Assembly: GCA_963807005.1 (NCBI GenBank)
Contig: CAWDZK010000006.1
Location: 558,875-622,874, forward strand
Length of the DNA stretch: 64,000 nucleotides
Direction of reading: 5' to 3'
From: an uncultured Actinomycetota bacterium
GTDB taxonomy: Bacteria; Actinomycetota; Actinomycetes; JACCUZ01
In this document: piece by piece, positions 42,261-62,161 of the stretch
Layout: each line of letters opens with the position of its first letter
Numbering within the stretch: the first letter of the stretch is position 1
The notes under the pieces: model-generated
Seen by the model: only the letters and a program-made list of their open reading frames with translations
Database searches by the model: none
What the model was told of the DNA's origin: nothing
Program-made: the position numbers and the translations under genes

Positions 42261-42806
42261 GTGACCGACCCTTCGTCCGACCGCCCCCCGGGTGACGCAC
42301 CTCACGCCGGGAAGCCCACCAGCGCCGCTCGCAGCACCCTCAGCCGGATCATGACGGTGCTGGACACCAACCTGCTCGGCTCGGTCCATGGCGGCGTGGT
42401 GATGAAGCTCGTGGACGACGTCGCCGGCGTGGTGGCACAGCGGCACTCCGGCGGCCCGGCGGTCACCGCGTCGATGGACGAGATGGCGTTCCTCTCGCCG
42501 GTCCGGGTGGGGGACCTGGTGCACGCCGCGGCGCAGGTCAACTGGGCCGGTCGGACGTCGATGGAGGTCGGCGTCCGGGTGGTCGCCGAGCCGTGGAACG
42601 AGGCCGGCGTGGAGCCGGTGCGGGTGGCCACGGCCTACCTCGTGTTCGTCGCCGTCGACGAGGCGGGCCGGCCGCGCGTGGTCCCGCCGGTGGAGCCGGA
42701 GACGACCGAGGACCGCAGGCGGTTCGCCGAGGCGGAGATCCGCCGGCAGCACCGGCTGGCCCGTCGGGAGGCCATCCTGCGCTCGCGGGAGTCCGGCGGG
42801 ACCTAG
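42261..42806 (+). CDS. Acyl-CoA thioesterase (hotdog fold, YciA-like)
   Basis: ...TLSRIMTVLDTNLLGSVHGGVVMKLVDDVAGVVAQRHSGGPAVTASMDEMAFLSPVRVGDLVHAAAQVNWAGRTSMEVGVRV. Start is GTG 42261 or ATG 42351. The stop shares a CTAG with the convergent gene. Confidence 0.75.
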   Translation: MTDPSSDRPPGDAPHAGKPTSAARSTLSRIMTVLDTNLLGSVHGGVVMKLVDDVAGVVAQRHSGGPAVTASMDEMAFLSPVRVGDLVHAAAQVNWAGRTSMEVGVRVVAEPWNEAGVEPVRVATAYLVFVAVDEAGRPRVVPPVEPETTEDRRRFAEAEIRRQHRLARREAILRSRESGGT

Positions 42807-45283: not shown

Positions 45284-45297
45284 GTCGGGTAGGGGTG

Positions 45298-46059: not shown

Positions 46060-46220
46060 GTGCCGTCCTCCCGCACGCGCGCTGAGCGTGCTTGGTCGTG
46101 CGTCCTCGAGGACCGGCAGATCGCTGTACCCCCGTGGACGCGAGGCAGGCACTCGCAGCGAGGGCCGGCCCGGTCGATGTGTCTCGGGCGGCTGGTTGCC
46201 CGCTGGGGGAGGGCTGAAAC

Positions 46221-47729
46221 TCAGCTGCAGACGTGGTCTGCGGCGGTGCGCACGCCGGAGCCGGCCGGTGCGGCCGCGCTGACCCGTACCGGCTTGGTGC
46301 CGGAGTAGGACGTGCCGATGACCACCTGCATGGTGCGGCCCAGCCCGGCCACCGGCACCAGCGCCGCGCCCGGCAGCGCCGCCGCGACCGTCTTGATGCT
46401 CTCGGTGTACCGGGCGTCGAACCGCACGGAGGTCCGAGCCACTCCGGTGCGGCTCCAGTTGGCGGCCGGACCGGCCATGCTGAAGCCCTCGGCAGCCAGG
46501 TCCGCGCTGGCCCGTGAACCGAGGCCCGGGGTGCCGCCGCCGTTGTAGACCTGCAGGTGCACCCCGGACGGGGGGATGGTCGGCCGCTGGGCACGGCCCG
46601 GACCGCGCTGCGGGCGTGCGGTGTCGTCGCGCATCGCCGCGAACACCGCGGTCGCGGCCCGGTCGTCCCACAGGGCGACGGAACCTGCGCGCGCGGAGCG
46701 GTACGACGGGTCGGCGACCGGCACCGTCCGGAACCTGATGTCGCTGCCCGACACGTGCCGGAGCCGGGTGCCGAGCCGGACCAGCTCGTCCTCGGTGAGG
46801 CCGGGGTCGGCGCGTACGGCGGACAGCGCGGCGTCGAGGAACCGGACGAGTGCCCGTGGGTCCAGCAGCACGTCGCGACTGGTGGCCCGGTCGACCATGG
46901 CGGCGAGGAACCGCTGCTGCCGCTCCACCCGGCCGAGGTCCGCGCGCGCGTCGAGGTGCCGGGCCCGGACGTAGGCCAGGGCTGTCTCGCCGTCGAGGTG
47001 GCTGACGCCGGCCGGTAGCTTCAGGCCCGCCTTGCGGTCGCGCATCCGGCTGGTGCTGCAGACGTCCACCCCGCCGACGGCGTCGACCAGCCGGACGAAC
47101 CCGAGGAAGTCGACCTCCAGGTAGTGGTCGACCCGCACGCCGGTGGTCCGCTCGATGGTCGCGACCGTCAGGGCCGGACCGCCGAACGCGTACGCCGCGT
47201 TGAGCTTGTTCCGGCGTTCGGGGACCCGGTCGCCGCCAGTGGAGACGTGCGCGGGGATCGTGACGTAGGAGTCCCGCGGCAGGCTCACCGCTTCGACAGT
47301 GCCGTGCTGCGCGGAGACGTGGACCAGCAGCATGGTGTCGGCGCGCCGGCCGGCGGCCGTCTGGGTGGTGCCGACGTGCAGCCGCTTCATGTCCGCGCGC
47401 GACATGCCGGTGCGACCGTCGGAGCCGACGAGAAGGAACGTGGTCGAGCCGGCGGCGGAGGCGGGCGGGCGGTCGGTGAGCCCGGCGAAGGCGTCGACCC
47501 GGTCGATCTTGCGGGTCGACCACGACAGCAGTGCGTAGCCGGAGGCGCTGGCGGCAAGCACCCCGAAGGCGGTCGCGGCGGCAACGAGGACGAGCAGGCG
47601 ACGGCCGATCCGGCTGAGCCGGGTCGGTGGCCGGCGACCCACCCGCGGGGGCCGCGGAGCGGCGGCGCTGCGCCCGCGCGGGTTCAGCTGCGGCGGGAGG
47701 GCCGGCTGGACGCCGGTCGGCGTGGACAT
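46221..47729 (-). CDS. LCP-family (LytR-CpsA-Psr) glycopolymer ligase with C-terminal LytR_C-like domain
   Basis: ATG 47729. TM anchor RIGRRLLVLVAAATAFGVLAA, then LCP core (FLLVGSDGR...ADTMLLVH...SLPRDSYVTIPAH...NKLNAAYAFGG...VDHYLEVDF) and C-terminal VHLQVYNGGGTPGLGSRASADLAAEGF. Confidence 0.8.
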   Translation of the reverse strand: MSTPTGVQPALPPQLNPRGRSAAAPRPPRVGRRPPTRLSRIGRRLLVLVAAATAFGVLAASASGYALLSWSTRKIDRVDAFAGLTDRPPASAAGSTTFLLVGSDGRTGMSRADMKRLHVGTTQTAAGRRADTMLLVHVSAQHGTVEAVSLPRDSYVTIPAHVSTGGDRVPERRNKLNAAYAFGGPALTVATIERTTGVRVDHYLEVDFLGFVRLVDAVGGVDVCSTSRMRDRKAGLKLPAGVSHLDGETALAYVRARHLDARADLGRVERQQRFLAAMVDRATSRDVLLDPRALVRFLDAALSAVRADPGLTEDELVRLGTRLRHVSGSDIRFRTVPVADPSYRSARAGSVALWDDRAATAVFAAMRDDTARPQRGPGRAQRPTIPPSGVHLQVYNGGGTPGLGSRASADLAAEGFSMAGPAANWSRTGVARTSVRFDARYTESIKTVAAALPGAALVPVAGLGRTMQVVIGTSYSGTKPVRVSAAAPAGSGVRTAADHVCS

Positions 47730-49152: not shown

Positions 49153-50109
49153 ATGATCGGCCGGGTGTCGAGGCCCTTCACGTTTCTCGCCGACGCGTTC
49201 GACGTGTCCAGCGCACGCGAGCTCGGTGAGCGGGCCCGCGCCGCCGAGGACCTCGGCGTCACCACGTTCGTGCTGCCGGACCACCTGGTCGACCAGCCGG
49301 CACCGGTGCCGTACCTGGCCGCTGTGGCCGCGCTCACCGAGCGCATCCGGATCAGCGCCTTCGTGCACAACAACGACCTCCGCCATCCCGCCGTGCTCGC
49401 CCAGGAGCTGGCCACCCTCGACGTCCTGTCCGAGGGCCGGCTCGACGTGGCCGTCGGGGCCGGCTGGAACGAGGCTGAGTACACCGCGATCGGCCTGCCC
49501 TTCGACCCGATCCGGGTCCGGCAGGCGCGGCTGGCCGAGTCGGTGCGGGTCATCAAGGGATGCTTCGGCGCCGGCCCGTTCTCGTTCGCCGGTGAGCACT
49601 ACCGGATCACCGACTACGACGCGCAGCCGAAACCGGTGCAGCAGCCGCACCCGCCGTTCTTCATCGGCGGTGGCGGCCGGCCGACGCTGGAGCTGGCCGC
49701 GCGCGAGGCGCAGACCGTGGGCCTGGCGCCGCGGATCATGCCCGGCGGCCGGCCGGACCCGCGCTCGCTCACCTGGGCGGCGACCGCGGAGAAGATCCGC
49801 TGGGTCCGGGAGGCGGCCGGCGAGCGGTTCGACGAGCTGACGCTCAACGTCTACCCGTCGTTCTGGCCCGTCACGGTCACCGACGACCTGGAGGGCGAGG
49901 CGGCGAAGGTGATCGCCGCGCTGGAGGAACGCAGCGGGATCGAGCTCACCGTCCAGGAGGTCGTCGACTCGCCGCACGTCTTCATCGGGTCGCACGACCG
50001 TTTCGTCGAGAAGTTCACCGGGCTGCGTGACGGCCTCGGGATCTCGTCGTTCCTCATCGGGGACCTCGACCAGCTCGGCCCGGTGGTCGCGCGGCTCGCG
50101 GGAACCTGA
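49153..50109 (+). CDS. LLM-class (luciferase-like) F420-dependent oxidoreductase
   Basis: FTFLADAFDVSSARELGERARAAEDLGVTTFVLPDHL...LSEGRLDVAVGAGWNEAEY..., the TIGR03621-like LLM pattern. Confidence 0.8.
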   Translation: MIGRVSRPFTFLADAFDVSSARELGERARAAEDLGVTTFVLPDHLVDQPAPVPYLAAVAALTERIRISAFVHNNDLRHPAVLAQELATLDVLSEGRLDVAVGAGWNEAEYTAIGLPFDPIRVRQARLAESVRVIKGCFGAGPFSFAGEHYRITDYDAQPKPVQQPHPPFFIGGGGRPTLELAAREAQTVGLAPRIMPGGRPDPRSLTWAATAEKIRWVREAAGERFDELTLNVYPSFWPVTVTDDLEGEAAKVIAALEERSGIELTVQEVVDSPHVFIGSHDRFVEKFTGLRDGLGISSFLIGDLDQLGPVVARLAGT

Positions 50110-50111
50110 GG

Positions 50112-50900
50112 TCAACCGGCTTCCGGCTCCCGGCGGAGCGCAGCGACCGCGTCCGGGACGTCGTTGAGCACCAGCACGTCCACGCCGGCGGCCACGAGGT
50201 CCCGCGCCCGCGCGGGCTCCGGGCACCAGGCCAGCACCCGCAGCCCGGCCCGGTGCGCGACCTCGACGCTCTCGCCGGCCGGCCGGTGCACCGGACCGGC
50301 CTCCACCCGGTTGGGTCCGAACGAGCCGTGATGCAGGCCCACGAGGTCGAGGCCGAACCCGGCGGCCGCGGCGACCAGGTGCCGCAGCGGGAAGTCGATC
50401 CAGCCGAGCAGGCCGTACGCCGCGCCGGGCACGGCGTGCCGGAGCCGGAGCAGAGCGGCGGGGTCGAACGACGTGACCAGCACCGGGCGGCGACCGGACT
50501 CCTCAGCCAGCAGCGGGGCGAGCAGTACGTCGGTACGGCGGGCGACCGGGTCGGTCGCATCCTCCAGCACCGTCTTGACGTCGAGGTCGACGGGCACTCC
50601 GGGCGGCAGTGCGTCGAGCAGATCTGCCACCGTGGCGAGACCGGCCGCGACGGCGTCCGCCTGCGAGACGTTCACGAGGAAGCGGCCGTCGGGAAGGGCC
50701 GGGTCGTGGCTCACCACGAGCGCGTCGTCGCGAGTGCGGGCGACGTCCACCTCCACGCCGTCGGCGCCCGCTGACAGCGCGGCCAGCATCGAGGCGACGG
50801 TGTTCTCCGGGTGGCCGGTCACGGCGCCCTTGCCGAGCCCGCGGTGACCGATCAGGGTAGGTCGGCCGACGAGGAAGCGATCGACCTCAGTCGTGCTCAT
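50112..50900 (-). CDS. Glycerophosphodiester phosphodiesterase (GDPD family)
   Basis: TLIGHRGLGKGAVTGHPENTVASMLAALSAGADGVEVDVARTRDDALVVSHD... Confidence 0.85.
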   Translation of the reverse strand: MSTTEVDRFLVGRPTLIGHRGLGKGAVTGHPENTVASMLAALSAGADGVEVDVARTRDDALVVSHDPALPDGRFLVNVSQADAVAAGLATVADLLDALPPGVPVDLDVKTVLEDATDPVARRTDVLLAPLLAEESGRRPVLVTSFDPAALLRLRHAVPGAAYGLLGWIDFPLRHLVAAAAGFGLDLVGLHHGSFGPNRVEAGPVHRPAGESVEVAHRAGLRVLAWCPEPARARDLVAAGVDVLVLNDVPDAVAALRREPEAG

Positions 50901-52284
50901 CGACGTCGCCGGTGGTCACCCGGCGGTGTCCTGCGAGCAGTCGGTCGCGCTCCGCGACCACGTCCGACACGGCCTGCTCGAACTTCCGCGAGCTGTCGCC
51001 GGGGCCGAGGTCGCCGAAGTAGTGCGTCCGGGTCCGGGCCCGGTCCTCGCGGCGCTTGTCGCTCTCCAGCGCGTCGGTCATCGCCTCGGCGAAACCGTCG
51101 ATGGTGGACGAGTCGATGATGTCGGCACCCTCGGTGAGCGGGCTGTCGCTGGCGAGGAGCTCGCGGTCGTCCCGCCGGTCGGTCAGGAAGATCGGCGCCT
51201 CGGCCCGGAGGTACAGGAAGTCGAGCGTGACGCTGGAGATGTCACCGACCAACGCGTCGCAGCCGCCGAACATCGCCAGGATGTTGCCGTCCGTGCGGGC
51301 GACGTGGCCGGCCTGCGGGTCACGCTGGTTGGCCTTCTCGACCATCGACATGATCTTGCGGTGCGCGGACCGGACGCCGGGGTTAGCCGAGCCTGCCACC
51401 CGGGGGTGCGGCTTGTAGACCACCCGCAGGTCGGGGAGCGCGAGCAGAGACTGCACGATCCGGATGCCGTACCGGTCCAGCGACGTCCAGTTGTTCGACT
51501 CGCTCTCGCCCTCCCACGTCGGTGCGTACATGACGGTGCGACGGGTCGACTCCGGCAGCTCGGCCGTGAAGTCGAGATCGAGCTGCGGCCGGCCGACCGG
51601 CACGACCTTGCTGTCGTCGAACCCGATGAGCGCCTCGCGGTACCTCTCGACGGCGACCGGTCCGGCCACGAACACCCGGTCATAGGCCTTGACCTGGTTG
51701 GAGAAGCTGGACAGCTTGTCGCTCTCGCCGTGGTTGACGTGCACGTGCAGCATCCGCGGGTTGTTCATCGACTGGAAGTTGCGCTGGCTGTTGTTGACGT
51801 AGATCCCGACCTTGAACTCGCAGGCGTCGTAGAGGTTCATCAGGTCGAGGAACGTCGTGAGGCAGACGGCCGGCAGCGTGGTGCGGTCCTGGAGGTCGCG
51901 CATGGCCCGGAGGTCCCGCAGGACCAGCACCACCTTGTGCTTGGAGGAGAGCCGCTCCAGCACCGGCAGCCACTGGTCGAGCTGGTAGATCCGGTCCGGG
52001 CCGTCGCCGTAGTAGACGACCACCTCGGCGTCGACCGGGATGCGGGCGGCGGCCATCTGCGGCACGAACGAGTCCGGGGCCAGCCGCAGCGCCAGCTCTG
52101 CCTGCGCCCGCCGGGCCCGCCAGCGCACCGCGCGCACGGTCCGCCGCGCCGCGGCTCGGGTGACGCTGGCCTCGGGCCTGTGGGGCACGTCGGGTCCTCC
52201 TGGGGCTGGCTGCGATGGGGGGTCTGCGGGGCGGACGCCGTACGCCCACCGCCTTCGGGGACGATACCGTCCGGGGGATCGCAC
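50887..52284 (-). CDS. CDP-glycerol glycerophosphotransferase (TagB/TagF family)
   Basis: ...HVHVNHGESDKLSSFSNQVKAYDRVFVAGPVAVERY...VMYAPTWEG...VVYKPHPR..., the TagF-like catalytic core. N-terminal start uncertain. Confidence 0.8.
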   Translation of the reverse strand: MRSPGRYRPRRRWAYGVRPADPPSQPAPGGPDVPHRPEASVTRAAARRTVRAVRWRARRAQAELALRLAPDSFVPQMAAARIPVDAEVVVYYGDGPDRIYQLDQWLPVLERLSSKHKVVLVLRDLRAMRDLQDRTTLPAVCLTTFLDLMNLYDACEFKVGIYVNNSQRNFQSMNNPRMLHVHVNHGESDKLSSFSNQVKAYDRVFVAGPVAVERYREALIGFDDSKVVPVGRPQLDLDFTAELPESTRRTVMYAPTWEGESESNNWTSLDRYGIRIVQSLLALPDLRVVYKPHPRVAGSANPGVRSAHRKIMSMVEKANQRDPQAGHVARTDGNILAMFGGCDALVGDISSVTLDFLYLRAEAPIFLTDRRDDRELLASDSPLTEGADIIDSSTIDGFAEAMTDALESDKRREDRARTRTHYFGDLGPGDSSRKFEQAVSDVVAERDRLLAGHRRVTTGDVDEHD

Positions 52285-52308
52285 TGCCCCACGGAGAGGT
52301 ACGACCTG

Positions 52309-53052
52309 ATGATCGGCATGGTGCTGGCGGCGGGTGCCGGCCGACGGCTACGCCCGTACACCGACACGCTGCCCAAGGCGCTCGTCCCGGTCGACGGCGA
52401 GACCACCATTCTCGACATCGCCCTGGGCAACCTGGCGACCGTCGGGCTCACCGACGTCACCGTGGTGGTGGGCTACCGGGCCGAGGCGGTCGAGGCCCGG
52501 CAGGCGGTCCTGGAGGAGCGGCACGGGGTCCACCTCACCCTCGTGCACAACGACAAGGCCGAGGAGTGGAACAACTGCTACTCCCTGTGGCTGGCCCGTG
52601 ACCAGTTCGCCCAGGGCGCCCTGCTGGTGAACGGCGACACCGTGCACCCGGTGAGCGTCGAGCGCACGCTGCTCGCGGCCCGGGAGAACGAGGGCGCCCC
52701 GGGCATCCTGCTCGCGCTCGACGACCAGAAGCGGCTGGCCGACGAGGAGATGAAGGTCGTCGTCGACGAGTCCCGTCGGATGCGCCGGATCACCAAGCTG
52801 ATGGACCCGGTCGAGGCGACCGGTGAGTACATCGGGGCCACCCTGATCGAGGCGCATGCCGCCGAGGCGCTGGCGACCGCCCTGGAGGCGACCTGGCAGC
52901 GCGACCCGGACCTCTACTACGAGGACGGCTACCAGCACCTGGTCGACACCGGCGGGGAGGTCGGGGTCGCTCCGATCGGTTCGGTCCGCTGGGTCGAGGT
53001 CGACAACCACGACGACCTCGCCAAGGCGCGGGAGATCGCGTGCCACTACTAG
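52309..53052 (+). CDS. Sugar/polyol-phosphate nucleotidyltransferase (MobA-like NTP_transf_3 family)
   Basis: RBS GGAGAGG. MIGMVLAAGAGRRLRPYTDTLPKALVPVDGETTILDIALGNL... Confidence 0.75.
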   Translation: MIGMVLAAGAGRRLRPYTDTLPKALVPVDGETTILDIALGNLATVGLTDVTVVVGYRAEAVEARQAVLEERHGVHLTLVHNDKAEEWNNCYSLWLARDQFAQGALLVNGDTVHPVSVERTLLAARENEGAPGILLALDDQKRLADEEMKVVVDESRRMRRITKLMDPVEATGEYIGATLIEAHAAEALATALEATWQRDPDLYYEDGYQHLVDTGGEVGVAPIGSVRWVEVDNHDDLAKAREIACHY

Positions 53053-54098
53053 CCCGGATGCTGCTCAGCCCGCTGTTCATCGACATCCGCGCGGGCGCGG
53101 TCTCCGGGCTCGGAGACCTGCTCGCCGACCGCCGGATCTCCGGCGACGGGCACGTCGCCGTGGCGGTGGGGCCGGGACAGGGCGAGGCCGTGGTGGCTGC
53201 GCTGCAGCCGGCGCTGTCCAACGCGGACGTCTTCACGGTCCGCGGGGGCAGCCTCGAGGCGGCCGGCGAGCTCCAGGCCGAGCTGCGGGGCAGGCACTAC
53301 GACGCCCTCGTCGGCATCGGCGGCGGCCGCACCCTCGACGTCGCGAAGTACGCGGCCACCAGGCTGGCGCTGCCCATGGTCGCCGTCGCGACCAACCTGG
53401 CGCACGACGGCATCGCCTCACCGGTGAGCTCACTGCTGCACGAGGGCGGCAAGGGCTCGTTCGGCGTGGTGCTGCCCATGGCAGTGGTCGTCGACCTGGA
53501 CTACGTGCGATCGTCCCCGCCCCGGATGGTGCGGTCCGGCGTCGGTGACGCCGTCTCGAACCTCTCGGCGATCGCGGACTGGCGGCTGGCGGCGGACGAG
53601 CGGGGGGAGCCGGTCGACGGGCTGGCGGTCACCTTCGCCCGGACCGCAGCCGAGTCCGTGCTGCACCGCACCGACAGCATCGAGTCGGACAGCTTCCTCA
53701 CCGCGCTCGCCGAGGCCCTCGTGCTCTCCGGCATGGCGATGGCGGCCGCGGGCTCCAGCCGGCCGTGCAGCGGCGGCGACCACGAGTTCCTGCACGCGGT
53801 GGACGTGCTCTTCCCCGGTGCCGGCAACCACGGGGAGCTGGCCGGCGTCGGCGCCCTCTACTCCTTCTTCCTGCGCGGCGACGAGGAGTCGGCGGCACTG
53901 GTCGATGCCTGCCTTCGGCGGCACGGACTTCCGCGGCTGCCGGCCGACCTGGGGCTGACCGCGGAGCAGATGACCGACGCGGTGCTGCTCGCGCCGTCCA
54001 CCAGGCCGGACCGGTACACGATCCTCGAGCACCTCGCCCTCGACGCGGCGGCGGTGCGGGCCTCGGTGGACGCCTACGTCGAGCGTTTCGGCGGCTGA
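53040..54098 (+). CDS. Iron-containing alcohol dehydrogenase-family enzyme, sn-glycerol-1-phosphate dehydrogenase (EgsA/AraM)-like
   Basis: GTG with GGGAGA RBS. ...LVGIGGGRTLDVAKYAATRLALPMVAVATNLAHDGIASPVSSL...GDAVSNLSAIADW...GDHEFLHAV..., matching the G1PDH / glycerol dehydrogenase-like pattern. Confidence 0.7.
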   Translation: MPLLARMLLSPLFIDIRAGAVSGLGDLLADRRISGDGHVAVAVGPGQGEAVVAALQPALSNADVFTVRGGSLEAAGELQAELRGRHYDALVGIGGGRTLDVAKYAATRLALPMVAVATNLAHDGIASPVSSLLHEGGKGSFGVVLPMAVVVDLDYVRSSPPRMVRSGVGDAVSNLSAIADWRLAADERGEPVDGLAVTFARTAAESVLHRTDSIESDSFLTALAEALVLSGMAMAAAGSSRPCSGGDHEFLHAVDVLFPGAGNHGELAGVGALYSFFLRGDEESAALVDACLRRHGLPRLPADLGLTAEQMTDAVLLAPSTRPDRYTILEHLALDAAAVRASVDAYVERFGG

Positions 54099-54171
54099 CC
54101 AGCCACCGAGCCCCCGGAGCCCCCGGTGGTAGCGTTCCTCGTCCGTCAGGTGAGAGACCGGTAGGAGCGTC

Positions 54172-54978
54172 GTGGCTGGACAGGTAGTGCCGGCGCGGCT
54201 GGGCACCCTGTGGGACAACCGGCGGGTCCTGTCCCTGCTCGTCACCCGTGACCTCAAGGTCAAGTACGCCGACTCGGTGCTGGGCTACGTCTGGTCCATC
54301 CTCGAGCCGCTGGCCATGGCCGGCGTCTACTGGTTCGTCTTCACCAAGCTGATGGACCGCCAGCTCGGGGAGGCGCCGTACATCGTCTTCCTGCTCTGCG
54401 GGATGCTCCCCTGGCAGTGGACCAACGCCGTGCTGCGCTCCTCGATGAAGTCGCTCACCAAGGACTCCAAGCTGGTCCGCTCGACCAACCTGCCCCGCGA
54501 GATCTGGGTGCTGCGCACGGTCGCCTCGAAGTTCGCCGAGTTCATGTATGCCATCCCGGTGCTCGTCGGCTTCGCGATCTTCTCCGACGCCCGGCTGTCC
54601 TGGTGGGTGGTGTTCGTCCCGCTCGCGATCCTCATGCAGGCGATGCTGCTCACGGGCGCGGGCCTCCTGCTGGCGTCGCTCTCGGTGCTGTACGGCGACG
54701 TCGAACGGCTGATGCGGATCGTCATGCGGCTGCTGTTCTACTTCTCCCCGGTCATCTACGGCGTCAACGACGTCACCAGCCGGCTCGGTGCGGTCGGCGA
54801 CCTCTTCCTGCTCAACCCCCTCGCGGGCATCTTCGACCTCTACCGCACCGCCTTCTTCCCCGACCAGTGGGCGGGCTGGACCGCGGTCATCCTGGCGGCG
54901 GTCGTGTCGCTGCTCTTCTTCGTCGTCGGAGCCCTGGTGTTCCGGCGGCTCGAGGGCACTGTCCTCAAGGAGATCTGA
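54172..54978 (+). CDS. ABC-2 type polysaccharide/teichoic-acid export permease (TagG/Wzm-like)
   Basis: LLVTRDLKVKYADSVLGYVWSILEPLAMAGVYWFVFTKLM..., six TM segments. Confidence 0.85.
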   Translation: MAGQVVPARLGTLWDNRRVLSLLVTRDLKVKYADSVLGYVWSILEPLAMAGVYWFVFTKLMDRQLGEAPYIVFLLCGMLPWQWTNAVLRSSMKSLTKDSKLVRSTNLPREIWVLRTVASKFAEFMYAIPVLVGFAIFSDARLSWWVVFVPLAILMQAMLLTGAGLLLASLSVLYGDVERLMRIVMRLLFYFSPVIYGVNDVTSRLGAVGDLFLLNPLAGIFDLYRTAFFPDQWAGWTAVILAAVVSLLFFVVGALVFRRLEGTVLKEI

Positions 54979-54980: not shown

Positions 54981-55835
54981 ATGGTCGTCGTCATCGAGGC
55001 AAAGAACCTCGGCATCCACTTCAAGCGCAACCGTCGTCGGCACAAGCGACTGCGCGACATGTTCTCGTCGACGCCCAAGCCGGACGCGCCGGTGCGCGCA
55101 CCGAAACCGGGCCAGGACGGCTCCGGCGCGGGTGGCAAGGGCGGCAAGGGCGGCAAGACCGGCAAGGGCGGCAAGGGCGGCAAGCGGAAGCACCACGAGT
55201 TCTGGGCGCTGCGCAACATCTCCTTCCAGATCCAGGAAGGCGAGGCGGTCGGCCTCGTCGGGGGCAACGGCCAGGGCAAGAGCACCCTGCTCAAGCTGAT
55301 CGCCGGCGTCCTGCTCCCCGACGCCGGCAAGATCCGGGTCCGGGGCGGGGTTGCCCCGCTCATCGAGGTGACCGGCGGCTTCGAGGGCGACCTGACGGCG
55401 CGGGACAACATCTGGCTGACGGCCGGCCTGCACGGGCTGTCGAAGAAGCAGATCGCCGCCAAGTTCGACGAGATCGTCGACTTCGCCGAGGTGGGCGACT
55501 TCCTCGACACGCCGTTCCGGCACTTCTCCTCCGGCATGAAGGTCCGGCTCGGCTTCTCCGTGATCACGACACTGGACGAGCCGATCGTCCTGGTGGACGA
55601 GGTGCTGGCGGTCGGCGACCGGGCGTTCCGCGAGAAGTGCTACCTGCGCATGCAGGACCTGCTCGCAGGTGGGCGGACGCTGTTCCTGGTGTCCCACAAC
55701 GAGGGTGACCTCAAGCGGTTCTGCACCCGTGGCCTGTACCTGCAGGGCGGTTCGCTGGTCGCGGACGCCCCCATCGAGGAGTCGCTGGCGCGCTACCGGG
55801 CCGACACCGAGGCGCGGCGGGCTCAGTACCGGTGA
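54981..55835 (+). CDS. ABC transporter ATP-binding protein (TagH/Wzt-like) with Lys/Gly-rich N-terminal insertion
   Basis: Walker A GGNGQGKSTLL, signature FSSGMKVRLGF, Walker B IVLVDEVLAVGD. Insertion PKPGQDGSGAGGKGGKGGKTGKGGKGGKRK precedes Walker A. Confidence 0.85.
   Translation: MVVVIEAKNLGIHFKRNRRRHKRLRDMFSSTPKPDAPVRAPKPGQDGSGAGGKGGKGGKTGKGGKGGKRKHHEFWALRNISFQIQEGEAVGLVGGNGQGKSTLLKLIAGVLLPDAGKIRVRGGVAPLIEVTGGFEGDLTARDNIWLTAGLHGLSKKQIAAKFDEIVDFAEVGDFLDTPFRHFSSGMKVRLGFSVITTLDEPIVLVDEVLAVGDRAFREKCYLRMQDLLAGGRTLFLVSHNEGDLKRFCTRGLYLQGGSLVADAPIEESLARYRADTEARRAQYR
55134..55187. repeat. In-frame 9-bp tandem repeat (GGCAAGGGC-like) x6 within the ABC ATPase gene, encoding (GKG)n
   Basis: Seen directly: ggcaagggc ggcaagggc ggcaagacc ggcaagggc ggcaagggc ggcaagcgg. 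Confidence 0.8.
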
Positions 55836-55836: not shown

Positions 55837-57654
55837 GTGCACGTGACCGGGCCGCTCCTCGTCGGCCCGGTGGACGACCTCGCGACGGGGCTGGCGGGGC
55901 TCGCGGGCTCGGTCCGCGCCGGGACCGGGCCGCTGCTGCTGGTCGCCGCCGACCTGCACGTCCATCCCGAGGCCCTCGCCGACCTGGCGGACGACCCGCG
56001 GCCCGGGACCGCGGTGCTCGCCAGCGCCACTCCGGGACTCGACGGCCACGACCTGCGTACCCGCGCGGGCCAGGTGGTCGCCGTCGCGACAGAGGTGCAC
56101 CGGCTCGGGTCGGCCGACTCGAGCTTCGTCGGCGCGCTGCGTATCGGCGCGGCCGACCGCGACGCCGCGGCGTCGGTCGCGGACGAGCTCGCCGCGCTCG
56201 CGCGCCACCACGGCTGGGCCGGCGACCCGCTGGGCTACCTCGTGCTCGGGCTGGTGCGCTCCGGGGTCCGGGTGGGCGCCATCCCGCTCGACCCCTGGCC
56301 CTGGGCCCGGGGCGACGGCCCCGCGGGGCAGGCGGTCCAGCGCGAGCTCGAGGGCATGGACGCCCGGGCCGTGCACGCGACCCGGTTCCGCCGCGCGGCC
56401 AAGACCGAGGACGCGTTCGTCGCGACCTTCGTGCACCGGCCGGTGGCCCGGCGCCTGACACCCCTCGCGCTGCGGCTGGGACTGACCCCGAACCAGGTCA
56501 CCGGCTTCTCGGTGCTGCTGGGGCTGGGCGCCGCCGGTGCGTTCGCCGGGGGCCGCTGGTGGTCTCTCGTCCTGGGTGCAGTGCTGCTGCAGCTCTCGCT
56601 GGTGGTCGACTGTGTCGACGGCGATGTCGCGCGGTTCCGGAGGATGTTCTCCCCGGTGGGCGCCTGGCTGGACGCGTCCACCGACCGGCTGAAGGAGTTC
56701 GCCTGCTACGGCGGCCTGGCCTGGGGTGCAGACGCCGGTCGCACCGGCTGGGTGCTGGCAGCCGCGATGCTCACCCTGCAGACCGCACGACACTCGCTCG
56801 ACTACACGTTCACCGCCGTCAAGGAGCTGCGCGAGGCCCCGCCGGTGGCGGCATCGCTCGCGGCCCCGGACGACCCGGGCGCAACCGTCGGCGCCGGTGA
56901 CGCCACCCCGTCGTCGCGAGCGGTGGCGCTCAGCCGGCGGGCGTCGGCGGGCCGGCCGGCGGTGGTCTGGCTCAAGAAGGTGCTGCACCTCGGCATCGGC
57001 GAGCGCTGGACGGTCCTGTCCCTCTTCGCCCTGGCGCAGCTGCCCGCCGTGGGGCTGGCCGTGCTGCTCGTCCTCGGTCTCGGGTCGTTGCTGTACGTCG
57101 GTGCCGGCCGGACCCTGCGGGCCCGGGCCTGGCCGGCCGGGCCGGTCCCGCCGCGGGAGCACGAGATCGTCACCGCCCAGGTCGACGGCGCCCCGCTGGT
57201 GCCGGCTCGGCTGGCCGGGCGGGTGGCCGGCAGCCCGACCGGCAGTCAGCGCTTCCTCTGGGCCCGCCCCGCCCTGCTGCGGGTCGGCGAGTACTCCGTC
57301 GTGCTCGCCCTGACCGGGCGGCTCCCGGGCCCCGGGGCCGGCGCCGCCGTCTTCGCGCTGCTCCTCGTGGTCGCCTCGCACCACTACGACGACCTCTACC
57401 GGGTGCTGCAGGGCCTCCGGCCGCCTGGTCGCGTCTCCCGGGCGCTCGGGCTGGGGGTGCCCGGCCGGCTGCTGGTCGTGGCCGCCCTGGCGCTGGTCGG
57501 CGGGGCGGCCGGCGAGGGGGGCGTGTGGCTGCTCGCGGCCGGGCTCGGCATCCTCTTCCTCGGGGTCGAGCCCGCCCGGCTGATGGGCGAGGTCCGGTCC
57601 CGCCCCGACCGGCACGACCCGAGCACGCTGTCCGAAGGAGCCGTGGGTGCCTGA
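55837..57654 (+). CDS. Membrane protein with CDP-alcohol phosphatidyltransferase domain plus N-terminal soluble domain
   Basis: GTG 55837. CAP motif region LLQLSLVVDCVDGDVARFRRMFSPVGAWLDASTDRL (D-x2-DG-x2-AR...G-x3-D-x3-D); multiple TM helices. Confidence 0.65.
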   Translation: MHVTGPLLVGPVDDLATGLAGLAGSVRAGTGPLLLVAADLHVHPEALADLADDPRPGTAVLASATPGLDGHDLRTRAGQVVAVATEVHRLGSADSSFVGALRIGAADRDAAASVADELAALARHHGWAGDPLGYLVLGLVRSGVRVGAIPLDPWPWARGDGPAGQAVQRELEGMDARAVHATRFRRAAKTEDAFVATFVHRPVARRLTPLALRLGLTPNQVTGFSVLLGLGAAGAFAGGRWWSLVLGAVLLQLSLVVDCVDGDVARFRRMFSPVGAWLDASTDRLKEFACYGGLAWGADAGRTGWVLAAAMLTLQTARHSLDYTFTAVKELREAPPVAASLAAPDDPGATVGAGDATPSSRAVALSRRASAGRPAVVWLKKVLHLGIGERWTVLSLFALAQLPAVGLAVLLVLGLGSLLYVGAGRTLRARAWPAGPVPPREHEIVTAQVDGAPLVPARLAGRVAGSPTGSQRFLWARPALLRVGEYSVVLALTGRLPGPGAGAAVFALLLVVASHHYDDLYRVLQGLRPPGRVSRALGLGVPGRLLVVAALALVGGAAGEGGVWLLAAGLGILFLGVEPARLMGEVRSRPDRHDPSTLSEGAVGA

Positions 57655-58429
57655 GCGTCCGACCATCGCCGAGCTGCGGGCGGTGACCCAGCCGGAGTCG
57701 GTGACCGGTCGCCGCAACGCCGAGCACTGGACGGGCGACCTCTACCAGCGCCGGCTCTCGCCGTACCTCACCCGGGTGCTCGTCGGGACGGCGATCACGG
57801 CCAACGGGGTGACCGTCCTCATGATCGTCACCGGCGCGGCAGCCGGTGCGGCCCTGCTGCTGCCCGGCCTGCTCGGGGCGGTCCTGGCCGCCCTGCTGGG
57901 CCAGCTGCAGATGCTCTGGGACTGCTGCGACGGCGAGGTGGCCCGCTGGCGGAAGACGTTCTCGCCGACGGGGTTCTTCCTGGACAAGCTCGGGCACACG
58001 GTCGCCGAGACCGCCGTGCCGCTCGCGCTCGGCGTCCGCGCCGACGGCGGGTTCGACTCGCTGGGCGGCTGGACCACGCTCGGTGCCGTCCTCGCCGTCC
58101 TGGTGCTCGTCAACAAGTCGCTCAACGACGCCGTGCACGTGGCCCGCGCCGCCAACGGGCTGCCCCGGCTCCAGGACCGCGAGGACGAGGCGGCCTCCCG
58201 TGTCTCCTCCGTGCGACGGCTCCGCTCGCTCGCGCGGTTCGTGCCGTTCCACCGCGTCTTCCACTCGATCGAGATGACCTTGCTCGCGCTGGTCGCCGGG
58301 GTCGTCGACGCGGCGACAGGCGGTGGGCTGGACGCCACCCGCGTCCTGGTGGGCGTCCTCGTGCCGGTGGCCCTGGTCACGGTGGCCGGCCACCTGGCCG
58401 CCATCCTGACCTCCAGCCGGCTGCGATGA
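57647..58429 (+). CDS. CDP-alcohol phosphatidyltransferase-family membrane protein
   Basis: GTG overlapping the upstream stop. LGQLQMLWDCCDGEVARWRKTFSPTGFFLDKLGHTVAE (CDP-OH_P_transf motif). Confidence 0.75.
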   Translation: MPERPTIAELRAVTQPESVTGRRNAEHWTGDLYQRRLSPYLTRVLVGTAITANGVTVLMIVTGAAAGAALLLPGLLGAVLAALLGQLQMLWDCCDGEVARWRKTFSPTGFFLDKLGHTVAETAVPLALGVRADGGFDSLGGWTTLGAVLAVLVLVNKSLNDAVHVARAANGLPRLQDREDEAASRVSSVRRLRSLARFVPFHRVFHSIEMTLLALVAGVVDAATGGGLDATRVLVGVLVPVALVTVAGHLAAILTSSRLR

Positions 58430-59292
58430 GCCTGCCGACCGTCGGCGCCGTCGTGCTGAGCATGGGCACCCGGCCGGTGGACTTCCCGCGAGCGCTGGAG
58501 TCGCTGCTCGCGCAGCAGGGCGTCGACCTCGATGTCGTCGTCGTCGGCAACGGCTGGGAACCGGTGGGTCTCCCGGCCGGCGTGCGTACGGTGCACCTGC
58601 CGGAGAACGTCGGCATCCCGGAGGGCCGCAACGTCGGGGCCGCCGAGGCCCGGGGCGAGGTGTTGTTCTTCTACGACGACGACGCCTACCTCCCCACCGA
58701 CGACGTGCTGGCGCGGCTGTGCGACGTGCTCGCCCGGGACGAGACGATCGCCGTCGCCCAGCCACGCCCGCTGGACCCCGAGGGCAAGCCGTCGCCGAGG
58801 CGGTGGGTGCCGCGACCCGGCGGCCGGGACCCGCTGCGTGCGGGGGAGGTCGGCTGGTTCTGGGAGGGCACGTTCGTCATCCGGCGGGCCGCCTTCGAGC
58901 GGGTCGGCGGCTGGCCCGGGCACTTCTTCTACGGTCACGAGAGCATCGACCTGGTCTGGCGGCTGTACGACGCGGGGTACGTCGTCCGGTACGAGCCGGA
59001 CGTGGTCATGAACCACCCGGCCACCTCACCCGCGCGGCACGACGTGTACTACCGCAACAACGCCCGCAACCGGGTCTGGGTCGCCCGGCGGAACCTTCCG
59101 TGGCCCCTGCTCGTGGTCTATCTCGCCGTCTGGACCGCGATCACCGTGCTGCGGGTCAGGTCACCCCGGCTGCTGGCCGTCTGGTTCTCGGGCTTCCGCG
59201 AGGGCTGGGGACCGGGGGCCGGTCCACGGCGACCGATCCGCTGGCGGACCGTCTGGCGCCTCACCCGCGCCGGCCGACCGCCCGTCATCTGA
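58426..59292 (+). CDS. Family 2 glycosyltransferase
   Basis: MSLPTVGAVVLSMGTRPVDFPRALESLLAQQGVDLDVVVVGNGWEP...VGIPEGRNVGA...LFFYDDDAYL. Confidence 0.8.
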   Translation: MSLPTVGAVVLSMGTRPVDFPRALESLLAQQGVDLDVVVVGNGWEPVGLPAGVRTVHLPENVGIPEGRNVGAAEARGEVLFFYDDDAYLPTDDVLARLCDVLARDETIAVAQPRPLDPEGKPSPRRWVPRPGGRDPLRAGEVGWFWEGTFVIRRAAFERVGGWPGHFFYGHESIDLVWRLYDAGYVVRYEPDVVMNHPATSPARHDVYYRNNARNRVWVARRNLPWPLLVVYLAVWTAITVLRVRSPRLLAVWFSGFREGWGPGAGPRRPIRWRTVWRLTRAGRPPVI

Positions 59293-59353
59293 GCAGGACC
59301 CGGGACCTAGAGTGGGACGCCGCCACCGGCCCGCGGACGAGGGAGGAGAGCTC

Positions 59354-62161
59354 GTGGACGCCCCGGACGTGTCGGTGGTCGTCATCTGCTTCAACGACCG
59401 CGCGAACCTGCCCCGTGCCGTGCGCTCGGCCCTGGGCCAGACGCTGCGCAACCTCGAGGTGCTGGTCGTGGACGACGCCTCGACGGACGGCTCCGCCGAC
59501 GTCGCCGACGAGCTGGCGCGCACCGACGACCGGGTGACGGTGGTCCGGCTCCCCGAGAACAGCGGCGGCTGCAGCCGACCGCGCAACACCGGCATCGACC
59601 GGGCCCGCGGTCGCTACGTGATGTTCCTCGACAGCGACGACTACTACGAGCGGCACGCCTGCAAGAACCTGCTGCTCGCCGCCGAGCGGACCGGCGCGGA
59701 GGTCGCCGCCGGCCGGGTGGTCCGGGAGAACCTCACCCGCGGCCGGCGCACCGACTGGGCCAAGGACCTGTACTCCGGCCGCGCGTTCTACCGCGGCGTG
59801 CGCGACAACCCACACCTGTTCTTCGACCCGCTCTCGACCAACAAGATCTACCGCCGGGACTTCCTGGACCGCCACCGGATCCGGTTCCCCGAGGGCGTGC
59901 ACTACGAGGACTCGATGTTCTCCACCGAGGTCTACTGCCAGGCCGAGGGCATCGCGATCATCCCGAACGACGTCTACTACTGGCGCGTGGTCGAGGACGC
60001 CGAGGAGGCGTCGATCACCCAGCGCCGGCACGAGTTCGAGAACTTCCGCGACCGGATCGCCGTGCACCGGATGATGGACGAGTACCTGCGTGCGCACGGG
60101 GCCGGGGACCTCAAGCCGTTCAAGGACTTCAAGTTCGTGCGGCACGACCTCAAGCTCTACCTCACCGACCTCGCCTACCGGGACGAGGACTACCAGCAGA
60201 AGTTCATCCGGTTGGCCGCCGAGTACCTCGACACGGTCAGCGACAAGACGCTCGCGCTGGCCTACCCGCTGGAGCGGATCTGCGTCCACATGATTCGGCG
60301 GCTCGACATCGAGGAGACGCTGCGCACCGTCGACTACCTGCGCTACGGCTTCAAGCTCTCCACCGACCTCGTGCAGCGCGACGGCCGGGTCTACTGGTCG
60401 GCGAAGTACCTCGACACGGCTGAGGACCGGGCGGTCATGGACGTCACCGAGATGGGCTTCCACCGGCTGCCGTTCTCGCGGCTGAACTTCCACAACCAGG
60501 TGACCGCGGCCGCGGTCGAGGGCAGCCGGCTGGACATCGAGGGTGAGGTCGTCAACCAGCTCGGCCGGCTGGGCGCGGGGGAGGGTCTGCGGCTCGCCGT
60601 CTCCCTCCGCAACCGGGGCAGCGCCCGGCGGCGTACCCATCCGGTGACCGACTGGACCCTGGACGGGTCGCGGCTGCGCTACCGGACCGTGATCGACCTG
60701 TCCCGAGCACTCGGGCCGCTCGACCAGCGCGAGCCGCTGTGGGACCTCCGGCTCGAGATCACCAAGGACGGCGAGACCAGCATCACGACCTTCGCCGTCG
60801 ACCCCACCCTGGTCACTGGCGCGCCGATCCGGGTGCGTGCCCGGCTGGGCGGCGTCGGCGTCGGCTGGGTGCAGCCGTTCGTCACCAGCAAGCTCAACCT
60901 GTCGTTCCAGCAGGCCCCGGACAACGTCAGCTCGGTCGCAGCGGCGCGCTCGAGCCGGGCGGTCGGCCGGGCCCTGCACGGGGTCCGCTGGCGGTCGAGC
61001 CGGGCGGTCGGGAACAACACCGCGCTCAAGGCGCTCGCCTACAAGGTCCTGAGGCGACTGCCTGTGGTTCCCGGGCTGGTCGTCTTCGAGTCGCACATGG
61101 GTGGGCAGTACTCCGACAGCCCGCGCTACATCTACGAAGCGGCTGTCGAGGCAGGGCTGGACCGCCTCGGTCTCCGGCCCGTCTGGTCCTACGCCAGGCG
61201 ACCGGACGGGTTCCCCACCGACTGCCGGCTGGTGCGGCGCGAGAGCTGGCGCTACGTCCACGACATGGCGCGCGCCGAGCTGTGGGTCGACAACCAGGGA
61301 TTCCCACGTGCGTACACCCGACGGCCCGAGACGACCTACGTCCAGACCTGGCACGGCACGCCGCTGAAGCGGATGGGTTTCGACTCACCCGCGCTGGAGC
61401 GCGCCAGCGCCGCCACCCGCCGGACGCACAAGGCCATGATGAAGCGCTGGAGCGCCCTTCTGGTGCCCAGCGAGTACTTCGTCGAGACCTTCGTGCAGTC
61501 CTACGGGTACCAGGGCGCCCTCGTGCGGGCCGGGCTGCCGCGCAACGACCTGCTGGTGCGAGGGGTGGACCAGGAGTGGGTCGACGCCAAGAAGCGTGAG
61601 CTCGGGCTGCCCACCGACCGTCGCCTGGTGCTGTACTGCCCGACCTTCCGCGACCGGGCCCGACGGCTCGAGACGCCGTACGACCTGCCGATCGACCTGG
61701 AGCAGGCGCGCCGCCTGATCGGGGACGACGTCCACCTGTTGCTCCGCACGCACTACCTGGACTCGTACAAGCTCTCGAACCGGTTCGCGCCGTTCGCTGC
61801 GGACGTCTCCAAGCACCACGACGTGACCGAGCTGATGCTCATCGCCGACGTGCTGGTGACCGACTACTCCTCGGTGATGTTCGACTTCGCCAACACCGGC
61901 AAGCCGATGGTGTTCTACACCTACGACTACGAGGACTACGTGCGGGACGAGCGCGGCACCTACCTCGATCTGACGGAGATCGCACCCGGACCGATGGTGG
62001 AGACGACCGAGACGCTCGTTGCCGCCCTGCGCAGCGTCGACGAGGATGTCGAGAAGTACAGGGAGCGGTACAGCGCGTTCCGGCAGCGCTTCTGCGAGTA
62101 CGAGACCGGCCATGCCGCTGAGCACGTCGTCGAGCAGTTCTTCCAACGGGGCCGCGGGTGA
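59354..62161 (+). CDS. Bifunctional GT2 glycosyltransferase / CDP-glycerol glycerophosphotransferase (TagF-like) fusion
   Basis: GTG 59354 with GGGAGGAGA RBS (ORF extends to 59312). N-terminus VSVVVICFNDRANLPRAVRSALGQTLRNLEVLVVDDASTDGS...FLDSDD (GT2). C-terminus ...QTWHGTPLKRMGFD...LYCPTFRD...LLRTHYL...DYSSVMFDFANTGKPMVFYTYDYEDY (TagF core). Confidence 0.8.
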   Translation: MDAPDVSVVVICFNDRANLPRAVRSALGQTLRNLEVLVVDDASTDGSADVADELARTDDRVTVVRLPENSGGCSRPRNTGIDRARGRYVMFLDSDDYYERHACKNLLLAAERTGAEVAAGRVVRENLTRGRRTDWAKDLYSGRAFYRGVRDNPHLFFDPLSTNKIYRRDFLDRHRIRFPEGVHYEDSMFSTEVYCQAEGIAIIPNDVYYWRVVEDAEEASITQRRHEFENFRDRIAVHRMMDEYLRAHGAGDLKPFKDFKFVRHDLKLYLTDLAYRDEDYQQKFIRLAAEYLDTVSDKTLALAYPLERICVHMIRRLDIEETLRTVDYLRYGFKLSTDLVQRDGRVYWSAKYLDTAEDRAVMDVTEMGFHRLPFSRLNFHNQVTAAAVEGSRLDIEGEVVNQLGRLGAGEGLRLAVSLRNRGSARRRTHPVTDWTLDGSRLRYRTVIDLSRALGPLDQREPLWDLRLEITKDGETSITTFAVDPTLVTGAPIRVRARLGGVGVGWVQPFVTSKLNLSFQQAPDNVSSVAAARSSRAVGRALHGVRWRSSRAVGNNTALKALAYKVLRRLPVVPGLVVFESHMGGQYSDSPRYIYEAAVEAGLDRLGLRPVWSYARRPDGFPTDCRLVRRESWRYVHDMARAELWVDNQGFPRAYTRRPETTYVQTWHGTPLKRMGFDSPALERASAATRRTHKAMMKRWSALLVPSEYFVETFVQSYGYQGALVRAGLPRNDLLVRGVDQEWVDAKKRELGLPTDRRLVLYCPTFRDRARRLETPYDLPIDLEQARRLIGDDVHLLLRTHYLDSYKLSNRFAPFAADVSKHHDVTELMLIADVLVTDYSSVMFDFANTGKPMVFYTYDYEDYVRDERGTYLDLTEIAPGPMVETTETLVAALRSVDEDVEKYRERYSAFRQRFCEYETGHAAEHVVEQFFQRGRG

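Follow-up and report, generated by a model that had tools for sequence, protein, structure and literature searches.

A coupled cytidylyltransferase and glycerol-1-phosphate dehydrogenase-like gene pair in Actinomycetota, predicted to supply CDP-glycerol of sn-1 configuration for envelope polymers

Glycerol-phosphate teichoic acids and capsules draw on one universal donor, cytidine diphosphate (CDP)-glycerol, which bacteria are not known to make in any but the sn-3 form, via TagD. The enzymes TagD and Gct have the HxGH cytidylyltransferase fold and draw on GpsA/GlpK metabolism for their sn-3 substrate. In the CDP-alditol pathway of TarJ and TarI from Staphylococcus aureus, and of the fused Bcs1 from Haemophilus influenzae, a keto-phosphate is reduced by an NAD(P)H-dependent reductase and the alditol phosphate is then cytidylylated; the cytidylyltransferase gene comes first, whether coupled to the reductase gene or fused with it, and the product serves teichoic-acid-type polymerases. 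TarI is an IspD-type enzyme and TarJ a medium-chain dehydrogenase. Here we describe a gene pair that resembles these systems in logic only, found in a 64,000-nucleotide stretch (72.8% G+C; hereafter the window) of contig CAWDZK010000006.1 from an uncultured Actinomycetota bacterium whose named nearest relatives are Sporichthyaceae metagenome-assembled genomes (MAGs). One gene encodes a nucleoside triphosphate (NTP) transferase of the LicC type, the other an iron-containing alcohol dehydrogenase (Fe-ADH) resembling sn-glycerol-1-phosphate dehydrogenase (G1PDH); their folds are unrelated to those of TarI and TarJ, and their starting compound would be a triose phosphate rather than ribulose-5-phosphate. 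From sequence comparison we think it rather probable that the pair makes CDP-glycerol of glycerol-1-phosphate configuration from dihydroxyacetone phosphate (DHAP), feeding the synthesis of an envelope polymer.

The transferase gene occupies positions 52309 to 53052 of the forward strand (ATG at 52309, TAG at 53050–53052; 247 aa), and the dehydrogenase gene follows on the same strand from 53040 to 54098 (GTG at 53040, TGA stop ending at 54098; 352 aa). Third-position GC reaches 0.90–0.98 in exactly these two annotated frames, so that both of the open reading frames (ORFs) reported here in a first-pass annotation of the sequence are coding. The same annotation held the genes to be translationally coupled, with a ribosome-binding site before the GTG, and this can be read directly from the junction (53030 to 53052, forward strand): a GGGAG at 53030–53034 ends 5 nt ahead of the GTG, and the genes share a 13-nt overlap, GTGCCACTACTAG, that closes with the TAG of the upstream gene. 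In 80 of 84 homologous sequences its length is unchanged, so the overlap is not a product of chance; the upstream GGAG is conserved too. A scan of 51900–54400 for promoters and terminators found none, and the 73-nt spacer 3′ of the dehydrogenase gene folds as RNA no better than shuffled sequence (z = −0.97).

The dehydrogenase is a member of the Pfam family Fe-ADH_2 (101 bits; cut-off 28), and against NCBIfam models it scores 239.4 bits with G1PDH (PRK00843, a value under that model's equivalog cut-off), compared with 57 bits for the glycerol dehydrogenase GldA, 51 for glycolaldehyde reductase and 18 for the 3-dehydroquinate synthase AroB. Its closest sequence match in the PDB is the G1PDH of M. 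jannaschii (E = 1e-42, ~40% identity over 254 residues), with a second G1PDH structure, from P. calidifontis, at E = 2e-38; by comparison, alternatives stand at E = 1e-13 or weaker, the best glycerol dehydrogenase reaching only E = 8e-14. The motifs of the G1PDH structures 4RGQ and 5FB3 are kept (the glycine-rich GIGGGR NAD loop, DGIASP, GDxVSN..DW, SSRPxSGxxHxxxH and HGE), here and throughout the family, with residues of DGIASP at 90% or above, and residues D123, S127, D170, H248, H252 and H264 align with their counterparts in both. In an alignment of 12 family members all of these are invariant except D123, which is present in at least 90%; by the residue roles annotated in UniProt/HAMAP, D170, H248 and H264 would bind the metal, D123 and H252 the substrate, and S127 the NAD. 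In sequence the protein thus resembles archaeal G1PDH more than it does glycerol dehydrogenase, dehydroquinate synthase or any other type of Fe-ADH. The first-pass annotation's description of an Fe-ADH-superfamily enzyme with G1PDH-like motifs is borne out, profile and active-site comparison alike favouring G1PDH. We infer from this kinship that the enzyme reduces DHAP to sn-glycerol-1-phosphate, and its stereochemistry is predicted on the same grounds.

Archaeal EgsA and Bacillus subtilis AraM share with the window protein their fold and their metal, substrate and NAD motifs, the window protein lying nearer to archaeal EgsA (E = 1e-42 to 2e-38) than to 9H4X, a more divergent PDB chain deposited as G1PDH (E = 3e-23). 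EgsA and AraM differ from it in feeding ether-lipid synthesis via GGGPS/PcrB; the window protein is paired with a cytidylyltransferase instead, and no gene for a prenyltransferase is linked to it. Phylogenies have recorded G1PDHs of Firmicutes and Actinobacteria as a clade to which no function was given (PMC6431249, PMC5059525), and a 2026 paper still treats AraM as the sole noteworthy bacterial source of glycerol-1-phosphate (PMC13400652).

The upstream protein had been called MobA-like; both sequence and structure matches point instead to the small cytidylyltransferases of which LicC and inositol-1-phosphate cytidylyltransferase (IPCT) are examples. It matches the Pfam families NTP_transferase (45.7 bits) and NTP_transf_3 (43.9 bits), and its best PDB sequence matches are 1JYK, the pneumococcal CTP:phosphocholine cytidylyltransferase LicC (E = 1e-14), and 4JD0, the T. 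maritima IPCT (E = 5e-11). An AlphaFold model of the protein (predicted local distance difference test, pLDDT, 80) retrieves with Foldseek, in this order, 4JD0 (template-modelling score 0.80), the PntC structure 6PD2 and 1JYK, with sugar-1-phosphate enzymes of the RmlA/GalU type ranking after them at E values ~100- to 1000-fold weaker. The protein carries the LAAGxGxRLxP..PK signature, MVLAAGAGRRLRPYTDTLPKAL, and an NNxYS motif in NNCYSLWL, both aligned with LicC; residues G9, G11, R13, K23, N88, N89, Y91 and S92 are invariant in 15 sequences. Clustering with MobA or CofC, which would have removed the transferase from wall-polymer synthesis, is not seen: no MobA-, MocA- or CofC-type enzyme is among its top structural matches, and the NCBIfam MocA model gives only 23 bits (E = 5e-5), far under the AglF, IPCT-DIPPS and MurU-type models. 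By Pfam it also belongs to a different family from TagD, having no HxGH fold (PF01467). On sequence and modelled structure, then, the transferase groups with the LicC, IPCT and PntC cytidylyltransferases of small phospho- and phosphono-alcohols, and we predict from homology that it is a CTP:glycerol-phosphate cytidylyltransferase, both its use of CTP (cytidine triphosphate) and its alcohol phosphate being assigned on that basis.

The two genes are inherited together. A scan of one genome per species found relatives encoded in at least 339 species, and the 80 loci kept from it, all from Actinomycetota and 61–91% identical, include Sporichthyaceae, Frankiaceae, Nocardioidaceae, Propionibacteriales, Micromonospora, Solirubrobacterales, Thermoleophilaceae and Nitriliruptorales; Streptomyces and Nonomuraea have the pair as well. 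In each of the 83 loci fetched as best query matches, which span at least six actinobacterial orders or families, the dehydrogenase gene is immediately preceded by the transferase gene. More distant dehydrogenase homologs (28–34% identity) in Clostridium butyricum and Nitratidesulfovibrio vulgaris are solitary and have no transferase partner, so the pairing is specific to a clade rather than generic.

An exhaustive search of 1.84 billion representatives returned 401 cluster representatives at E ≤ 1e-30, among which is a natural fusion of the two enzymes. This 579-aa protein, P0454, has its transferase half first: the N-terminal half matches the window transferase over its full length (E = 2e-27) and the C-terminal half the full-length dehydrogenase (E = 5e-66). 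Fusions of this type occur on independent contigs from different samples. The P0454 contig (L089, from JGI metagenome 3300033141; gene region 8001–10553) has 28% G+C, and its SecD scores about threefold better with the NCBIfam PRK08343 models, which we take to be archaeal, than with TIGR01129; the contig is therefore probably archaeal. Directly 3′ of the fusion lie genes for a 238-aa CDP-alcohol phosphotransferase, a family 4 glycosyltransferase (GT4), a radical SAM protein and a family 2 glycosyltransferase (GT2), and the region is flanked by a Wzx-type flippase and a PMT_2 glycosyltransferase. The presence of the fused enzyme beside a CDP-alcohol phosphotransferase in a likely archaeon suggests an ancient origin of the module.

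These data bear on the simplest alternative, that an ordinary glycerol or alcohol dehydrogenase and a sugar-1-phosphate nucleotidyltransferase have come to be neighbours by chance in a polysaccharide locus. Public annotation would allow it, naming the transferase 'sugar phosphate nucleotidyltransferase', 'choline kinase' or 'phosphocholine cytidylyltransferase family protein' and the dehydrogenase 'iron-containing alcohol dehydrogenase family protein' or 'glycerol-1-phosphate dehydrogenase', and sugar-1-phosphate transferases are close structural neighbours of the former. These names follow the homology of the parts, so the pathway itself is not recognised in annotation. Against such a coincidence, adjacency, gene order and the 13-nt overlap are kept from Streptomyces to Solirubrobacterales, the genes are fused in one lineage, the G1PDH model outscores those for glycerol dehydrogenase fourfold, and the partnerless homologs in Clostridium and Nitratidesulfovibrio show that the pairing belongs to one clade. 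The conservation of the pairing excludes chance adjacency, and we regard this account as very improbable. The first-pass annotation's analogy to TarI/TarJ, with other enzyme families in the same roles, holds up well here: the pair is invariant across Actinomycetota, exists also as a single fused protein, and neither of its members matches IspD or ADH_zinc in Pfam or NCBIfam.

We propose that the Fe-ADH_2 enzyme would convert DHAP and NAD(P)H to sn-glycerol-1-phosphate, the archaeal enantiomer, and that the LicC/IPCT-type enzyme would join this to CTP to give CDP-glycerol of sn-1 configuration, the 13-nt overlap, and fusion in one lineage, presumably serving to co-express the two activities. 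Glycerol phosphate could then be passed to lipid-linked glycopolymer intermediates by two AF2299/DIPPS-type and two TagF-like enzymes encoded nearby, with LicD-family enzymes taking the transferase role in other lineages; a TagGH-type ATP-binding cassette (ABC) transporter would export the polymer, and LytR-CpsA-Psr (LCP) enzymes would probably attach it to peptidoglycan. The pair would thereby stand in for the canonical TagD route from sn-glycerol-3-phosphate and, like TagD and Gct, would supply a donor of the CDP-glycerol class to TagF/TarF-type enzymes. That an activated CDP-polyol is made from a dehydrogenase product, possibly CDP-glycerol of this stereochemistry, had been put forward from the sequence alone, and every computational check supports it, with substrates and stereochemistry resting on homology. 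A search with a TagD probe 81% identical to annotated tagD found no TagD-like ORF, and no GxFDxxHxGH motif, in either the 64-kb window or any of the 83 loci.

Several points weigh against this reading. The dehydrogenase falls below the PRK00843 equivalog cut-off, at 239.4 against 413 bits, and given that score strict membership of the G1PDH family is not established; P0454, at 315 bits, is also under the cut-off. Among the structural matches of the transferase, sugar-1-phosphate nucleotidyltransferases trail the best by a modest margin (E = 7e-16 against 3e-13). The 83 loci, chosen as best matches to the query, are phylogenetically non-independent, about 20 of them coming from Micromonospora, and a tagD gene may lie elsewhere in the genome, beyond the window. 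A further point is that Gtp1, the Streptococcus pneumoniae reductase, reportedly takes dihydroxyacetone that bears no phosphate; should the window dehydrogenase and Gtp1 be members of one family, the substrate of the former could not be fixed by homology alone.

The last point leads to a specific rival, in which the product is CDP-2-glycerol or another compound not derived from glycerol-1-phosphate: dihydroxyacetone or another ketone would be reduced without a phosphate, a phosphotransferase encoded elsewhere would add one, and cytidylylation would follow. The pneumococcal CDP-2-glycerol pathway is said to combine a reductase with a LicC-like cytidylyltransferase and, starting from unphosphorylated dihydroxyacetone, reportedly adds a third enzyme, the glycerol-2-phosphotransferase Gtp3. 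Like the window pair, the Gtp1/Gtp2/Gtp3 set belongs to a surface-polysaccharide locus, includes a reductase together with a cytidylyltransferase and yields an unusual CDP-glycerol isomer, the genes being documented in pneumococcal capsule loci (PMC1391919), and the sub-cut-off score of the dehydrogenase would suit such an enzyme. Unlike that system, the pair is accompanied by no third conserved gene, whether kinase or phosphotransferase, in any of the contexts described below, and in two loci (L023 and L029) it stands alone among housekeeping genes; the dehydrogenase is highly similar over all active-site segments to DHAP-reducing G1PDHs known from both biochemistry and structure, and from DHAP two enzymes suffice. 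We therefore consider a Gtp-like route distinctly unlikely.

The surroundings of the pair indicate where its product might be used. Flanks of 5 kb or more on either side were available for 58 loci, and 53 of these encode a user of CDP-alcohol donors within 10 kb of the pair: a CDP-alcohol phosphotransferase in 40, LicD in 12 and TagF in 7. The commonest partners are not TagF but two membrane CDP-alcohol phosphotransferases resembling AF2299 and DIPPS, one of them with a DUF5941 domain. In Sporichthyaceae, Frankiales, Solirubrobacterales, Nitriliruptorales, Streptomyces and Nonomuraea (context class A) the module consists of a DUF5941 CDP-alcohol phosphotransferase, the NTP transferase, the G1PDH-like enzyme, a small CDP-alcohol phosphotransferase and a GT2, usually with an ABC exporter; in Micromonospora and Plantactinospora (class B) the pair is accompanied by one CDP-alcohol phosphotransferase with a complete motif; and in Nocardioidaceae (class C) it adjoins a LicD-family protein, a GlfT2-like galactofuranosyltransferase and an ABC-2 exporter. 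In the five exceptions the pair is alone among housekeeping genes. That it stays a two-gene unit among unrelated genes is as expected of a precursor-supply module, and the isolated pair fits a portable unit of this kind. The pair's members are thus co-inherited, coupled, occasionally fused, and embedded among CDP-alcohol-dependent transferases and polymer-export genes. In L023, from a Nocardioidaceae MAG, the pair is followed at 11174–11917 by a TMEM164-family membrane protein (Pfam, 193 bits), its other neighbours encoding PhoX, RmuC and a restriction helicase.

In the window the two membrane enzymes lie on the forward strand downstream of the pair. The first (55843 to 57654) is a 603-aa protein in which Pfam recognises CDP-OH_P_transf and DUF5941 behind a degenerate, cytidylyltransferase-like N-terminal domain; the second (57647 to 58429) is a 260-aa paralog (CDP-OH_P_transf, 29.6 bits). 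AF2299 is the best PDB match of both, at E = 8e-15 and E = 1e-8, respectively. The 603-aa protein has the full DxxDGxxAR..GxxxDxxxD motif as DCVDGDVAR..GAWLDASTD, invariant in 36 homologs, and its AlphaFold model (pLDDT 90; predicted template-modelling score 0.89) aligns over two domains with its top Foldseek matches, IPCT-DIPPS (4MND) and AF2299 (4O6N). Taken alone, its N-terminal domain aligns with IPCT and PntC. Profile-profile comparison of this domain with the NTP-transferase family was not significant (probability 0.18), and structure prediction decided the matter; the domain has no GxGxR signature and is therefore probably non-catalytic. In the 260-aa paralog the fourth motif Asp is replaced by His, and in its orthologs (L002–L088) this Asp is never present, being replaced by His in most lineages and by Ala in Streptomyces and Nonomuraea, whereas the 603-aa partner and the single Micromonospora enzyme retain it; the small protein may act as a pseudo-enzyme or as one half of a heterodimer. 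In L003 (3565–6120) the large and small phosphotransferases are called as one 851-aa protein, separate in the near-identical L002 (12721–15277), which could be a real fusion or an assembly indel.

The locus shares with IPCT-DIPPS and AF2299 of Archaeoglobus fulgidus a LicC/IPCT-type cytidylyltransferase and a membrane phosphotransferase that uses a soluble CDP-alcohol, and the 603-aa protein has the same two-domain architecture. It differs in that the N-terminal domain of that protein lacks GxGxR and the catalytic transferase is a separate gene, in the extra DUF5941 membrane domain, in a context of envelope polymer export rather than compatible solutes, and in an alcohol phosphate that would come from G1PDH rather than from inositol-phosphate synthase. 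By analogy, the pair may be viewed as a bacterial counterpart of the archaeal IPCT/DIPPS arrangement in which G1PDH has replaced inositol-phosphate synthase.

The same likeness supports a second rival, in which the transferase activates inositol-1-phosphate or another alcohol phosphate and glycerol-1-phosphate is the acceptor, giving a phosphodiester of glycerophospho-inositol type comparable to the archaeal solutes di-myo-inositol phosphate and glycerophosphoinositol. Actinobacteria produce inositol-1-phosphate, no solved structure is closer to the transferase than the T. maritima IPCT, the 603-aa partner is built like IPCT-DIPPS/AF2299, and both CDP-alcohol phosphotransferases score best on NCBIfam models related to inositol phosphate, below the cut-offs of those models. 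On the other side, the coupling of reductase and cytidylyltransferase, and their fusion, indicate successive reactions, as in Bcs1; neither an inositol-phosphate synthase nor a phosphatase is encoded in linkage; and the context is one of TarF-like enzymes, a glycerophosphodiesterase, LicD, polymer exporters and LCP ligases, with no genes for solute synthesis. We judge an inositol product improbable.

A somewhat less remote alternative, still an unlikely one in our estimate, concerns only the fate of the product and would leave the proposed function of the pair as it is: CDP-glycerol might serve a membrane lipid, its glycerol phosphate being transferred to diacylglycerol or a glycolipid to form phosphatidylglycerol-like lipids of Kennedy type or an anchor resembling that of lipoteichoic acid. 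Choline and ethanolamine phosphotransferases do use soluble CDP-alcohols with lipid acceptors, and Micromonospora has only the NTP transferase, the G1PDH-like enzyme and a CDP-alcohol phosphotransferase. The position of the Streptomyces module beside a hopanoid lipid cluster could be read in the same way; set against these are the polymer-type ABC-2 exporter and glycosyltransferases in the modules of most lineages, and the TagF-like enzymes and LCP ligases of the window. The module in question, in Streptomyces fungicidicus NZ_CP023408.1 (L084, 3343–19056) and Streptomyces sp. BHT-5-2 (L087), comprises seven genes in the order DUF5941 protein, NTP transferase, Fe-ADH, CDP-alcohol phosphotransferase, glycosyltransferase, ABC permease and ABC ATPase, and lies between idi and a cluster of hpnC, hpnD, hpnE, a polyprenyl synthetase gene and shc. 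This adjacency was not seen in other lineages, and we discarded a connection with hopanoids or with ether lipids of archaeal type, since the module has no prenyltransferase gene beside it and idi/hpn adjacency is absent outside Streptomyces.

Around the pair, the window encodes further candidates for polymer assembly and export. Downstream on the forward strand are an ABC-2 exporter permease of TagG/Wzm type (54172 to 54978; Pfam ABC2_membrane, 57.8 bits; NCBIfam galactan-export permease, 62.6 bits) and its TagH/Wzt-like ATPase (54981 to 55835, boundaries as in the public gene call; Pfam ABC_tran; NCBIfam teichoic-acid export ATPase, 187 and 171 bits). Beyond the two membrane phosphotransferases follow, on the same strand, a GT2 (58426 to 59292; Pfam Glycos_transf_2), which adjoins the small phosphotransferase across lineages, a 949-aa fusion of a GT2 with a TagF/TarF-like glycerophosphotransferase (59312 to 62161; Glyphos_transf 326.8, Glycos_transf_2 124.5 and NCBIfam TarF 256 bits), and a GT4 (62158 to 63312; Pfam Glycos_transf_1, 134.5 bits). 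The fusion is predicted from its sequence to consume CDP-glycerol. It is a single ORF here and two genes (430 and 505 aa) in L001 (16315–19121); this stretch is only 99% identical to the otherwise identical L001 contig, and the difference is likely a frameshift between assembly versions.

On the reverse strand, upstream of the pair, a divergent TagF-like protein (50887 to 52188) matches Glyphos_transf weakly (33.1 bits, E = 4e-8), its start being uncertain and the public gene call giving 433 aa. The neighbourhood had been described as two TagF-like genes with a TagGH exporter; these are indeed present, one of the TagF-like genes as this weak match (33 bits), but the description overlooked the two CDP-alcohol phosphotransferases at 55843–58429, which are commoner partners of the pair than TagF. 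Overlapping the end of the divergent gene is one for a glycerophosphodiester phosphodiesterase (GDPD) family protein (50112 to 50900, reverse strand; Pfam GDPD, 68.9 bits), a GDPD–TagF pairing that recurs in related loci. Within the wall-polymer locus, 49153–50900 holds a luciferase-like, possibly F420-dependent, monooxygenase together with this GDPD, which has no obvious signal peptide. Farther upstream on the reverse strand are two genes for LCP wall-polymer ligases (46221 to 47729 and 40969 to 42339), with Pfam LytR_cpsA_psr scores of 167.8 and 143.9 bits; Pfam recognises nothing in the two long coding stretches that separate them at 42803–46200 on that strand (826 and 253 aa as publicly called). 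Elsewhere in the window, positions 1–40000 contain ordinary housekeeping genes, including those for a carboxyltransferase, a two-component system, acyl-CoA dehydrogenases, purK/purE and UDP-glucose dehydrogenase, and also GTP cyclohydrolase I, GH63-like and GH15 hydrolases and a sigma factor of the extracytoplasmic function (ECF) type; no priming gene of the TagO/TagA type was recognised there.

A search of the open-access literature for CDP-1-glycerol, for a cytidylyltransferase of glycerol-1-phosphate, for DUF5941 and for the locus tags presumed to apply in S. coelicolor brought up nothing pertinent, a description elsewhere being possible. Within that literature, the pair would be a CDP-alditol synthase acting by a route not yet described in bacteria, and the enclosing CDP-alcohol-phosphotransferase module could be more novel still. 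Actinobacteria make polyglycerolphosphate lipoteichoic acid yet have no LtaS, and the pathway is unknown (PMC3196553). We suggest tentatively, as a proposal with some but no great chance of being right, that the module may be an LtaS-independent route to glycerol-phosphate envelope polymers in Actinomycetota, in which the membrane CDP-alcohol phosphotransferases, rather than TagF or LtaS, would prime or polymerise sn-glycerol-1-phosphate from CDP-1-glycerol. Its components may be the DUF5941 CDP-alcohol phosphotransferase, the cytidylyltransferase, the G1PDH, the paralog without the fourth Asp, the GT2 and the ABC-2 exporter. If so, it would account both for an 'archaeal' G1PDH in this phylum and for polyglycerolphosphate resembling lipoteichoic acid in LtaS-less actinobacteria.

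CDP-1-glycerol has been considered likely to be absent from bacteria (PMC8262930, 2021), an assumption that a widespread G1PDH–cytidylyltransferase pair would overturn if our reading is correct. It would also give a function to the actinobacterial branch of G1PDH, discussed so far only in phylogenies of the lipid divide (PMC6431249, PMC5059525), and would provide an enzyme pair usable as a one-pot source of enantiopure CDP-1-glycerol. Wall polymers built from this donor would have the opposite handedness, which would bear on stereospecific hydrolases such as GlpQ, on phage and toxin receptors and on recognition by antibodies; and organisms without LtaS would have a concrete candidate for their lipoteichoic acid pathway (PMC3196553).

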